Assembly: GCF_003334765.1 (NCBI RefSeq)
Contig: NZ_QOWT01000004.1
Origin: Escherichia coli
GTDB taxonomy: Bacteria > Pseudomonadota > Gammaproteobacteria > Enterobacterales > Enterobacteriaceae
DNA: 64,000 nt
Reading direction: 5' to 3' (one strand)
The notes under the pieces were generated by a model. The model was not told the origin of the DNA. It saw only the letters and a program-made list of their open reading frames with translations, and made no database searches. Every line of letters starts with the position of its first letter. The first letter of the stretch is position 1. Made by a program: the position numbers and the translations under genes. Shown here in pieces: positions 59,922 to 60,397 of this stretch.

Positions 59922-60397
59922 CTTAGATGTCCGGTATTAAGTAAGTTGCACACACAATAATTTCGTCTTCAATTAAGATCTGCTTAACTAAAGAACGCTC
60001 GCTATTATTCAGATAATTCAAAATGAGCGTGGCTGTGATGATAGGAATTATGTTTTTTACGTGAATGAGAATAATCTTAAATGAGGAATAACTCATTGAT
60101 TGACAATATTTTTATTCAAGAAGTGTCATTGACTGTTAACGCAATGTTGTAAAGGTAAGATAATCTGATTTATCAATATTATTGTGTGATTTTTATGTGA
60201 GCAGAAGATATTCATCAGCAACGATTACATTAGTCATTTTATTTTGCCGACGGCCTCATTGTCGAAAGATAAGCGTACGACAGTATTATCAGAAAAGAGT
60301 GATTTTTTATCCAACTACACTTCAGCGCACTGCGTGTAAAAAATGCCTCTTTCTTATGCGGGATATCATCATTTCATCATGATGTCTTTGGTGAGCG

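Follow-up and report, generated by a model that had tools for sequence, protein, structure and literature searches.

In Escherichia coli, the interval between ymgG and the ycgI pseudogene carries the small annotated genes ymgI and ymgJ. Analysis of a 64,000-nucleotide (nt) stretch of E. coli contig NZ_QOWT01000004.1 (hereafter the window), in which this interval occupies positions 59922-60397, indicates that it is probably a divergent regulatory region, composed of the promoter and 5' leader of the ymgG-ymgD operon on the left and the relic of an autotransporter gene on the right. All of its elements are of an already known kind, namely an RcsB-dependent promoter, a leader targeted by small RNAs (sRNAs), an autotransporter pseudogene and doubtful annotated open reading frames (ORFs). 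This reading draws on homologies to a paralogous locus, an intact allele in another strain, disruptions of the annotated ORFs, patterns of substitution, and motif matches together with their conservation.

The window is 100% identical to E. coli K-12 MG1655, and its coordinates are obtained by subtracting 1,163,067 from those of NC_000913.3 (anchored on minE; Table 1). As the first-pass annotation of this DNA had stated, the interval is AT-rich (33.8% GC versus 49.1% in the whole window, with 200-nt windows down to 28.5%) and contains ymgI and ymgJ in the RefSeq annotation. Its right edge at 60397 proved to be an ORF boundary only, and the ycgI pseudogene and the deletion junction described below both start at 60497. 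The "very small genes" that were expected there are both annotated, but the comparative evidence favours regulatory DNA and a gene relic. The comparative set was small. A scan for YmgD in one genome per species, which covered close relatives only, yielded five loci: E. sp. E1V33 (L013), E. whittamii (L014), strain SCPM-O-B-8794 (L015), E. albertii and the distant Edwardsiella hoshinae (L017). Variation was compared among eight E. coli strains (95-100% identity) at the strain level and among four sister Escherichia lineages at the species level.

On the minus strand, a putative promoter of ymgG-ymgD was identified, in which the sequence TAAGATTATTCTCA is an exact fit to the RcsB box TN(G/A)GAN4TC(T/C)NA, as structurally defined for Salmonella RcsB (PMC7913699), and abuts the -35 hexamer. 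This motif is present at the same position in eight of nine Escherichia sequences, with differences confined to its degenerate positions, in an alignment in which 53% of the columns around the box are variable. Both hexamers are kept in Escherichia as well, the -10 element as TATCAT or TATTAT and the -35 element as TTCACG, TTCAAG or TTCCCG, and the end of the -10 hexamer predicted by the promoter scan (60038) lies 7 nt upstream of position 60031, which is the 5' end used in a published ymgG fusion. Conserved blocks were found in the start-site region (CTCATTTTGAATTATCTGAATAA) and in the stretch immediately before the ymgG start, a pattern expected of a promoter and leader but not of a protein. 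Furthermore, ymgG-ymgD has been listed among the RcsB-modulated genes, with a 5.5-fold effect on ymgD (PMC2731931), and the ymgG and ymgD mRNAs increase approximately 19- to 27-fold in the presence of a LolCDE inhibitor and are also raised by beta-lactams and polymyxin B (PMC5105897). Positions 59922-60079 most likely represent the promoter and leader of this envelope-stress operon. RcsB would bind its box at -48 to -35, beside the -35 hexamer, and thereby activate a sigma-70-type promoter from which transcription of ymgG-ymgD would begin at about 60031.

Two further features of this operon were observed. A conserved C immediately precedes the -10 hexamer (60038-60044, minus strand), giving CTATCAT in E. 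coli and E. albertii and CTATTAT in the other Escherichia lineages. A C just upstream of the -10 hexamer is often linked with RpoS-dependent promoters. Outside Escherichia, YmgD was identified in Edwardsiella hoshinae only (63% identity), which is a patchy distribution for a periplasmic protein of the Rcs regulon, in a scan reaching close relatives only.

The leader of ymgG has been analysed in a study of the sRNAs OmrA and OmrB, which repress the fusion ymgG-110+90 via their conserved 5' end (bioRxiv 10.64898/2026.06.26.734639). The forward primer of this fusion ends in CACGCTCATTTTGAATTATCTG, which is the reverse complement of window positions 60010-60031 and thus places the mRNA 5' end assumed by these authors at 60031, 110 nt upstream of the ymgG TTG at 59921; the source of the start site is not stated in that study (bioRxiv 10.64898/2026.06.26.734639). 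The fusion design and the promoter geometry together point to transcription starting at 60031, and genes of the ymgG-ymgI-ymgJ region are not mentioned in the SMRT-Cappable-seq supplements. No variable sites were found in 59928-60031 among the eight E. coli strains, and across Escherichia 21% of the leader columns are variable, spread evenly over codon positions. The predicted fold of the leader is no better than that of shuffled sequences (z = -0.40). No OmrA/B pairing site was assigned by duplex prediction with the Omr 5' end, as the best duplex fell within the coding region and alternatives were close. The 110-nt leader would serve as the target of post-transcriptional repression by OmrA and OmrB.

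To the right of the promoter, the interval probably has a different origin. A second copy of 60143-60497 was identified by genome search in most E. coli genomes, directly upstream of ypjA/ehaD; it is situated outside the window, within which no repeats were found. In K-12, 60143-60497 shares 89% identity with a stretch of 356 base pairs (bp) that is separated from the ypjA start codon by 30 nt, and 60497-60850 shares 95.5% identity over 355 bp with the 3' end of ypjA (its final 345 nt and a further 10 nt), the upstream and 3'-end homologies following each other in the same order as in an intact family member. Such an intact member is present at this very locus in strain Ecol_316, which encodes, downstream of the same upstream sequence including "ymgJ" and before minE, a complete "YpjA/EhaD" gene of 3357 nt (1118 codons). 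Its product shares 81% identity with YpjA over residues 119-1118 and is more divergent in the N-terminal part. A total of 3041 bp of the Ecol_316 allele is missing from K-12; the missing stretch begins 30 nt ahead of the start codon and spares only the final 344 nt of the gene. These 344 nt, which encode the end of the beta-barrel, make up the ycgI pseudogene, which is collinear with the Ecol_316 3' end. The K-12 deletion junction is shared by 4597 of 5426 complete E. coli genomes (~85%). In E. sp. E1V33, E. whittamii and SCPM-O-B-8794, homology to K-12 ends at 60198 and returns at minE, so that the whole ymgJ-ycgI block is absent from these three cryptic-clade genomes.

Positions 60143-60497 thus most likely once preceded a YpjA/EhaD-like autotransporter adhesin gene. 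This gene would have lost its ribosome-binding site, its start codon and the bulk of its coding sequence through a deletion of approximately 3 kilobases (kb), which would have joined its upstream DNA to the last 344 nt that persist as ycgI. The two K-12 copies are 94% identical over 60301-60497 versus 82-84% further upstream, which would fit gene conversion, or an earlier role as leader or regulatory DNA, rather than a coding region.

Several additional observations concern the structure of this relic. A 55-bp stretch (60143-60198) occurs in K-12, in the copy upstream of ypjA and, in cryptic-clade Escherichia, at the "empty" site without the autotransporter block, so that the duplication and the insertion or deletion have overlapping boundaries. 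Records of O157:H7 match only the right half of the K-12 junction (60497-60580) and seem to carry a different rearrangement. In several E. coli strains (hits H1-H4 and H31), 59900-60500 was matched in two pieces with an IS1 element between them; ymgJ is not annotated in H31, which suggests an IS1 insertion within ymgJ. Just after ycgI, a hairpin (CTGCGCTTCGGCGCAG) followed by TTTTCGTTT at 60856-60880 on the plus strand looks like the old autotransporter terminator, and is not listed by the terminator scan.

The alternative that survives best is that ymgI, ymgJ or both are real young genes, restricted to E. coli and Shigella and translated at a low level or only under specific stresses, with ymgI being transcribed from an unmapped promoter further upstream. 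K-12 and most E. coli genomes contain both ORFs in intact form, RefSeq names both, and ymgI has 57 codons in each of the eight strains. When the interval was shuffled 2000 times with dinucleotides preserved, 31% of the shuffles contained one or more ORFs of at least 57 codons, making ORFs of the length of ymgI or ymgJ unremarkable here, and two such ORFs arose in only 4.4%. Despite these points we consider this alternative unlikely, based on the position of the ORFs relative to transcription and translation signals, their substitution patterns and their disruption in relatives.

With regard to these signals, the 66-codon TTG-initiated ORF at 60182-60382 noted in the first-pass annotation exists and is in the ymgJ frame, the annotated ymgJ start being located five codons further on at GTG 60197. 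It was not the only frame on the ORF track, as had been claimed, since a 57-codon minus-strand ORF with an ATG start was listed that is exactly the annotated ymgI. The comparison with annotated coordinates that had been proposed as a check therefore places ymgJ in the frame that had been singled out and ymgI in a minus-strand frame that had gone unmentioned. The remark that no convincing ribosome-binding site was evident was fair, and it extends to both genes. No Shine-Dalgarno-like run and no GGAG- or GAGG-like bases were identified just upstream of ATG 60096 of ymgI (...TATTGTCAATCA; ...AAAATATTGTCAATCA-ATG), and no Shine-Dalgarno-like run was found in the bases preceding GTG 60197 of ymgJ (...GTGTGATTTTTAT). 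The ymgI ORF has a canonical start and stop (ATG 60096 to TAA 59923), and its ATG is situated 65 nt upstream of the putative transcript start at 60031. Its codons 1-22 overlie the RcsB box and the -35 and -10 hexamers, codons 23-57 coincide with the leader, and its TAA stop ends one base before the TTG start of ymgG. The annotated ymgI would thus be a stretch of open frame superimposed on the promoter and leader of ymgG-ymgD.

The substitution patterns of ymgI differ from those of its neighbours. In the Escherichia alignment, variable columns at codon positions 1/2/3 number 4/3/51 in ymgD and 10/3/48 in ymgG, a third-position bias indicative of purifying selection, but 18/20/19 in ymgI, where no such bias was detected either in the promoter part (11/13/11) or in the leader part (7/7/8). 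Among the eight E. coli strains, all six variable sites of ymgG are synonymous, and six of the seven in ymgI are nonsynonymous. Furthermore, codon 3 of ymgI is a TAA stop in E. sp. E1V33, E. whittamii and SCPM-O-B-8794, the second of which additionally contains a 1-nt deletion and the third a second stop, and the ATG is replaced by ATA in E. albertii. A search of 5.8 billion proteins recovered YmgI-like ORFs only from Escherichia and Shigella, with varying N-termini and lengths of 45-98 residues; E. albertii and E. ruysiae contain shorter in-frame YmgI-like ORFs with other starts. No match at threshold was obtained for YmgI, YmgJ or a 39-codon ORF at 60343-60462 in scans against NCBIfam and Pfam-A. 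These results indicate that ymgI is probably not a conserved protein gene.

Constraint on coding sequence is likewise not apparent in ymgJ. In the copy upstream of ypjA, a stop interrupts the ymgJ frame after 11 codons and a 1-nt indel is also present, and the gene is frameshifted in strains Z247 and 18KM2445, as annotated by the Prokaryotic Genome Annotation Pipeline (PGAP) and confirmed by translation. Among the eight E. coli strains, ymgJ has variable sites at approximately 12% of its positions versus 1.7% in ymgG, distributed 3/10/8 over codon positions, as well as two indel columns. In E. sp. E1V33, E. whittamii and SCPM-O-B-8794 it is absent together with its whole block. The 39-codon ORF is annotated by PGAP as a "hypothetical protein" in other K-12 records, and the strain and paralogue comparisons gave no indication that it is constrained as coding sequence: its ATG is changed to ATA in two strains, its frame is shifted in one, and all five differences from the ypjA-upstream copy are nonsynonymous. 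We conclude that ymgJ is probably a chance ORF inside the relic; together with the 39-codon ORF, it would have arisen by chance in decaying AT-rich DNA.

The genes ymgI and ymgJ are both on a 2025 list of uncharacterized E. coli proteins, without assignment of a regulator or Gene Ontology term, for which the criterion was a UniProt "protein existence" level of 4, i.e. predicted only (PMC12356324). No experimental detection of YmgI or YmgJ protein was found in the literature searched. A 16-fold decrease of ymgI has been reported in a butanol-tolerant sigma-70 mutant (PMC4888631), and the CFT073 YmgI probe and ymgD are both listed as core stress-response genes (PMC12389024). Such changes in "ymgI" expression are consistent with a probe that reads the ymgG leader, which covers 109 of the 174 nt of the ORF. 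RNA of "ymgJ" increased by approximately 5 log2 units in an evolved BL21 strain (PMC7181518), which implies that the relic can be transcribed and says nothing about translation. More broadly, a functional product from at least one of the ORFs, whether by coupling of a leader ORF to ymgG under OmrA/B control or as young proteins born from promoter or relic DNA, appears highly unlikely.

A further alternative, to which we assign only a slender chance, is that the promoter of the relic still fires and produces a non-coding transcript of approximately 0.5-0.7 kb that passes through ymgJ and ycgI and acts as a regulatory RNA. The increase of "ymgJ" RNA in the evolved strain, the elevated identity of 60301-60497 to the ypjA copy and the hairpin and T-run after ycgI would be in line with such a transcript. 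Against it, no other part of the locus varies as much between E. coli strains, with roughly 12% variable sites and indels in addition, the region has been lost entirely in the cryptic clades, and the identity near the junction could equally reflect an ancestral leader or gene conversion with ypjA. In addition, no Rfam family reached threshold in 59400-61200, where the best matches (E values up to 10) scored 13-19 bits versus gathering scores of 39-97. One of them, an OmrA-B match of 17.6 bits on the hairpins after ycgI, was rejected as a sub-threshold chance match.

The slimmest chance is that of an upstream ORF formed by the 3' part of the ymgI frame within the ymgG leader (e.g. from TTG 60021), whose termination would lead to reinitiation on ymgG in a coupling that OmrA/B could modulate: the stop-start arrangement TAAGTTG at the ymgI/ymgG border, a frame that K-12, E. 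sp. E1V33 and E. albertii keep uninterrupted between the start site and its stop, and a ymgG start codon (TTG, or GTG in E. albertii) with only a weak Shine-Dalgarno sequence would suit it, but the frame is broken by the 1-nt deletion in E. whittamii and by TAA in SCPM-O-B-8794 with ymgG kept in both, variation in the leader part is even over codon positions, no Shine-Dalgarno sequence precedes any candidate start, and TTG 60021 is only 10 nt from the 5' end.

Some observations weigh against our interpretation of the interval as the ymgG-ymgD promoter and leader joined to an autotransporter relic. The main point in favour of coding is that the ymgI frame remains uninterrupted along the leader of K-12, E. 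albertii and some E. ruysiae, where gene callers predict ORFs of 48-53 codons with other starts; a conserved leader would account for this equally well. Every YmgI-like protein match carries a precomputed Pfam tag, PF28591 (PF28591.1), which was not reproduced with the Pfam-A library scanned here, presumably an older release. Poor conservation may also be compatible with a young, E. coli-specific protein, and the microarray and RNA-seq changes reported for "ymgI" and "ymgJ" (PMC4888631; PMC7181518) indicate that this DNA is transcribed in some conditions. The RcsB motif is short, and its chance occurrence is expected, with two matches found in the 64 kb versus 2.4 expected by chance; its weight lies in its position and conservation rather than its occurrence. 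Finally, the start at 60031 is taken from the fusion design of another group, and an additional upstream promoter may include the ymgI ATG. Our interpretation is least certain with regard to the start site and the lack of translation of ymgI and ymgJ, which are inferred rather than measured here.

The coordinates of the features discussed are compiled in Table 1. Regarding neighbouring sequences, a separate terminator-like site for minE was observed at 60936-60919 on the minus strand. On the other side of ymgD-ymgG, K-12 contains the autotransporter pseudogene ycgH (~56534-59181, plus strand), which is frameshifted and has an internal stop, and its counterpart in Ecol_316 is intact (2649 nt) and annotated as an "ECIAI39_1904 family autotransporter adhesin". 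The possibility that ycgH and ycgI are halves of one gene split by ymgD-ymgG was rejected, as ycgH encodes a beta-barrel end of its own and forms an intact gene by itself in Ecol_316. With ycgH broken and ycgI a remnant, K-12 has lost both adhesin genes flanking ymgD-ymgG.

Table 1. Positions of annotated genes and of observed or predicted elements at the ymgD-minE locus, in window coordinates.
Feature	Position	Strand	Basis and remarks
ymgD	59238-59567	-	RefSeq
ymgG	59577-59921	-	RefSeq; TTG start at 59921
Putative ymgG-ymgD 5' leader, 110 nt	59922-60031	-	Start at 60031 inferred from fusion design
ymgI (b4593)	59923-60096	-	RefSeq; 57 codons, ATG 60096, TAA stop 59925-59923
Predicted ymgG-ymgD -10 hexamer TATCAT	60043-60038	-	Consensus promoter scan; 16-nt spacer
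Predicted ymgG-ymgD -35 hexamer TTCACG	60065-60060	-	Consensus promoter scan
Putative RcsB box	60066-60079	-	Exact pattern match; -48 to -35 relative to putative ymgG start site
Probable relic of YpjA/EhaD-like autotransporter upstream region (promoter and leader)	60143-60497	+	Homology to ypjA upstream DNA
ymgJ (b4594)	60197-60382	+	RefSeq; 61 codons, GTG start 60197
39-codon ORF	60343-60462	+	PGAP "hypothetical protein" in other K-12 records; not in NC_000913.3
ycgI pseudogene	60497-60840	+	RefSeq
minE	61212-61478	-	RefSeq

The main value of these results is as a caution for annotation. Both ymgI and ymgJ are part of the reference E. coli annotation, from which PGAP has spread them to thousands of genomes, and they turn up in lists of uncharacterized proteins and in expression studies; in published work, a ymgI knockout was made in one study and ymgJ was picked for reverse engineering in another. 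If ymgI is the promoter and leader of ymgG-ymgD, a "ymgI" signal reports Rcs-driven transcription of ymgGD, and a deletion of ymgI would remove the ymgGD promoter. If ymgJ is relic DNA, work on its "function" is likely wasted. The locus also provides a small, clear example of how a deletion makes a pseudogene of an adhesin gene, with an orphaned promoter region left behind where gene callers then report ORFs.

Compared with E. coli small proteins validated by epitope tagging and initiation-site ribosome profiling, ymgI and ymgJ are alike in size (57 and 61 codons) and intergenic setting, and their products share hydrophobic stretches rich in isoleucine and leucine. In contrast to the validated proteins, they lack a ribosome-binding site, conservation in sister species and a codon-position bias, and experimental detection of their products was not found in the literature searched. 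With the adhesin-like autotransporter locus ypjA/ehaD, the locus studied here shares both the upstream (89%) and the 3'-end (95.5%) sequence, and some strains encode an intact ypjA paralogue at this site. Unlike ypjA/ehaD, the K-12 copy is devoid of a ribosome-binding site, a start codon and approximately 3 kb of coding sequence, and no adhesin can be made from it. The putative ymgG-ymgD promoter resembles the RcsB-activated envelope-stress promoters of osmB, ytfK and yciG (PMC7913699) in having an exact match to the RcsB box, which is located just upstream of the -35 hexamer at -48 to -35, a position close to that of the ytfK box (-50 to -36; table in PMC7913699). Like these promoters, ymgG-ymgD is listed as RcsB-modulated and is induced by envelope damage; unlike them, it has a promoter and leader over which an ORF, ymgI, has been annotated.

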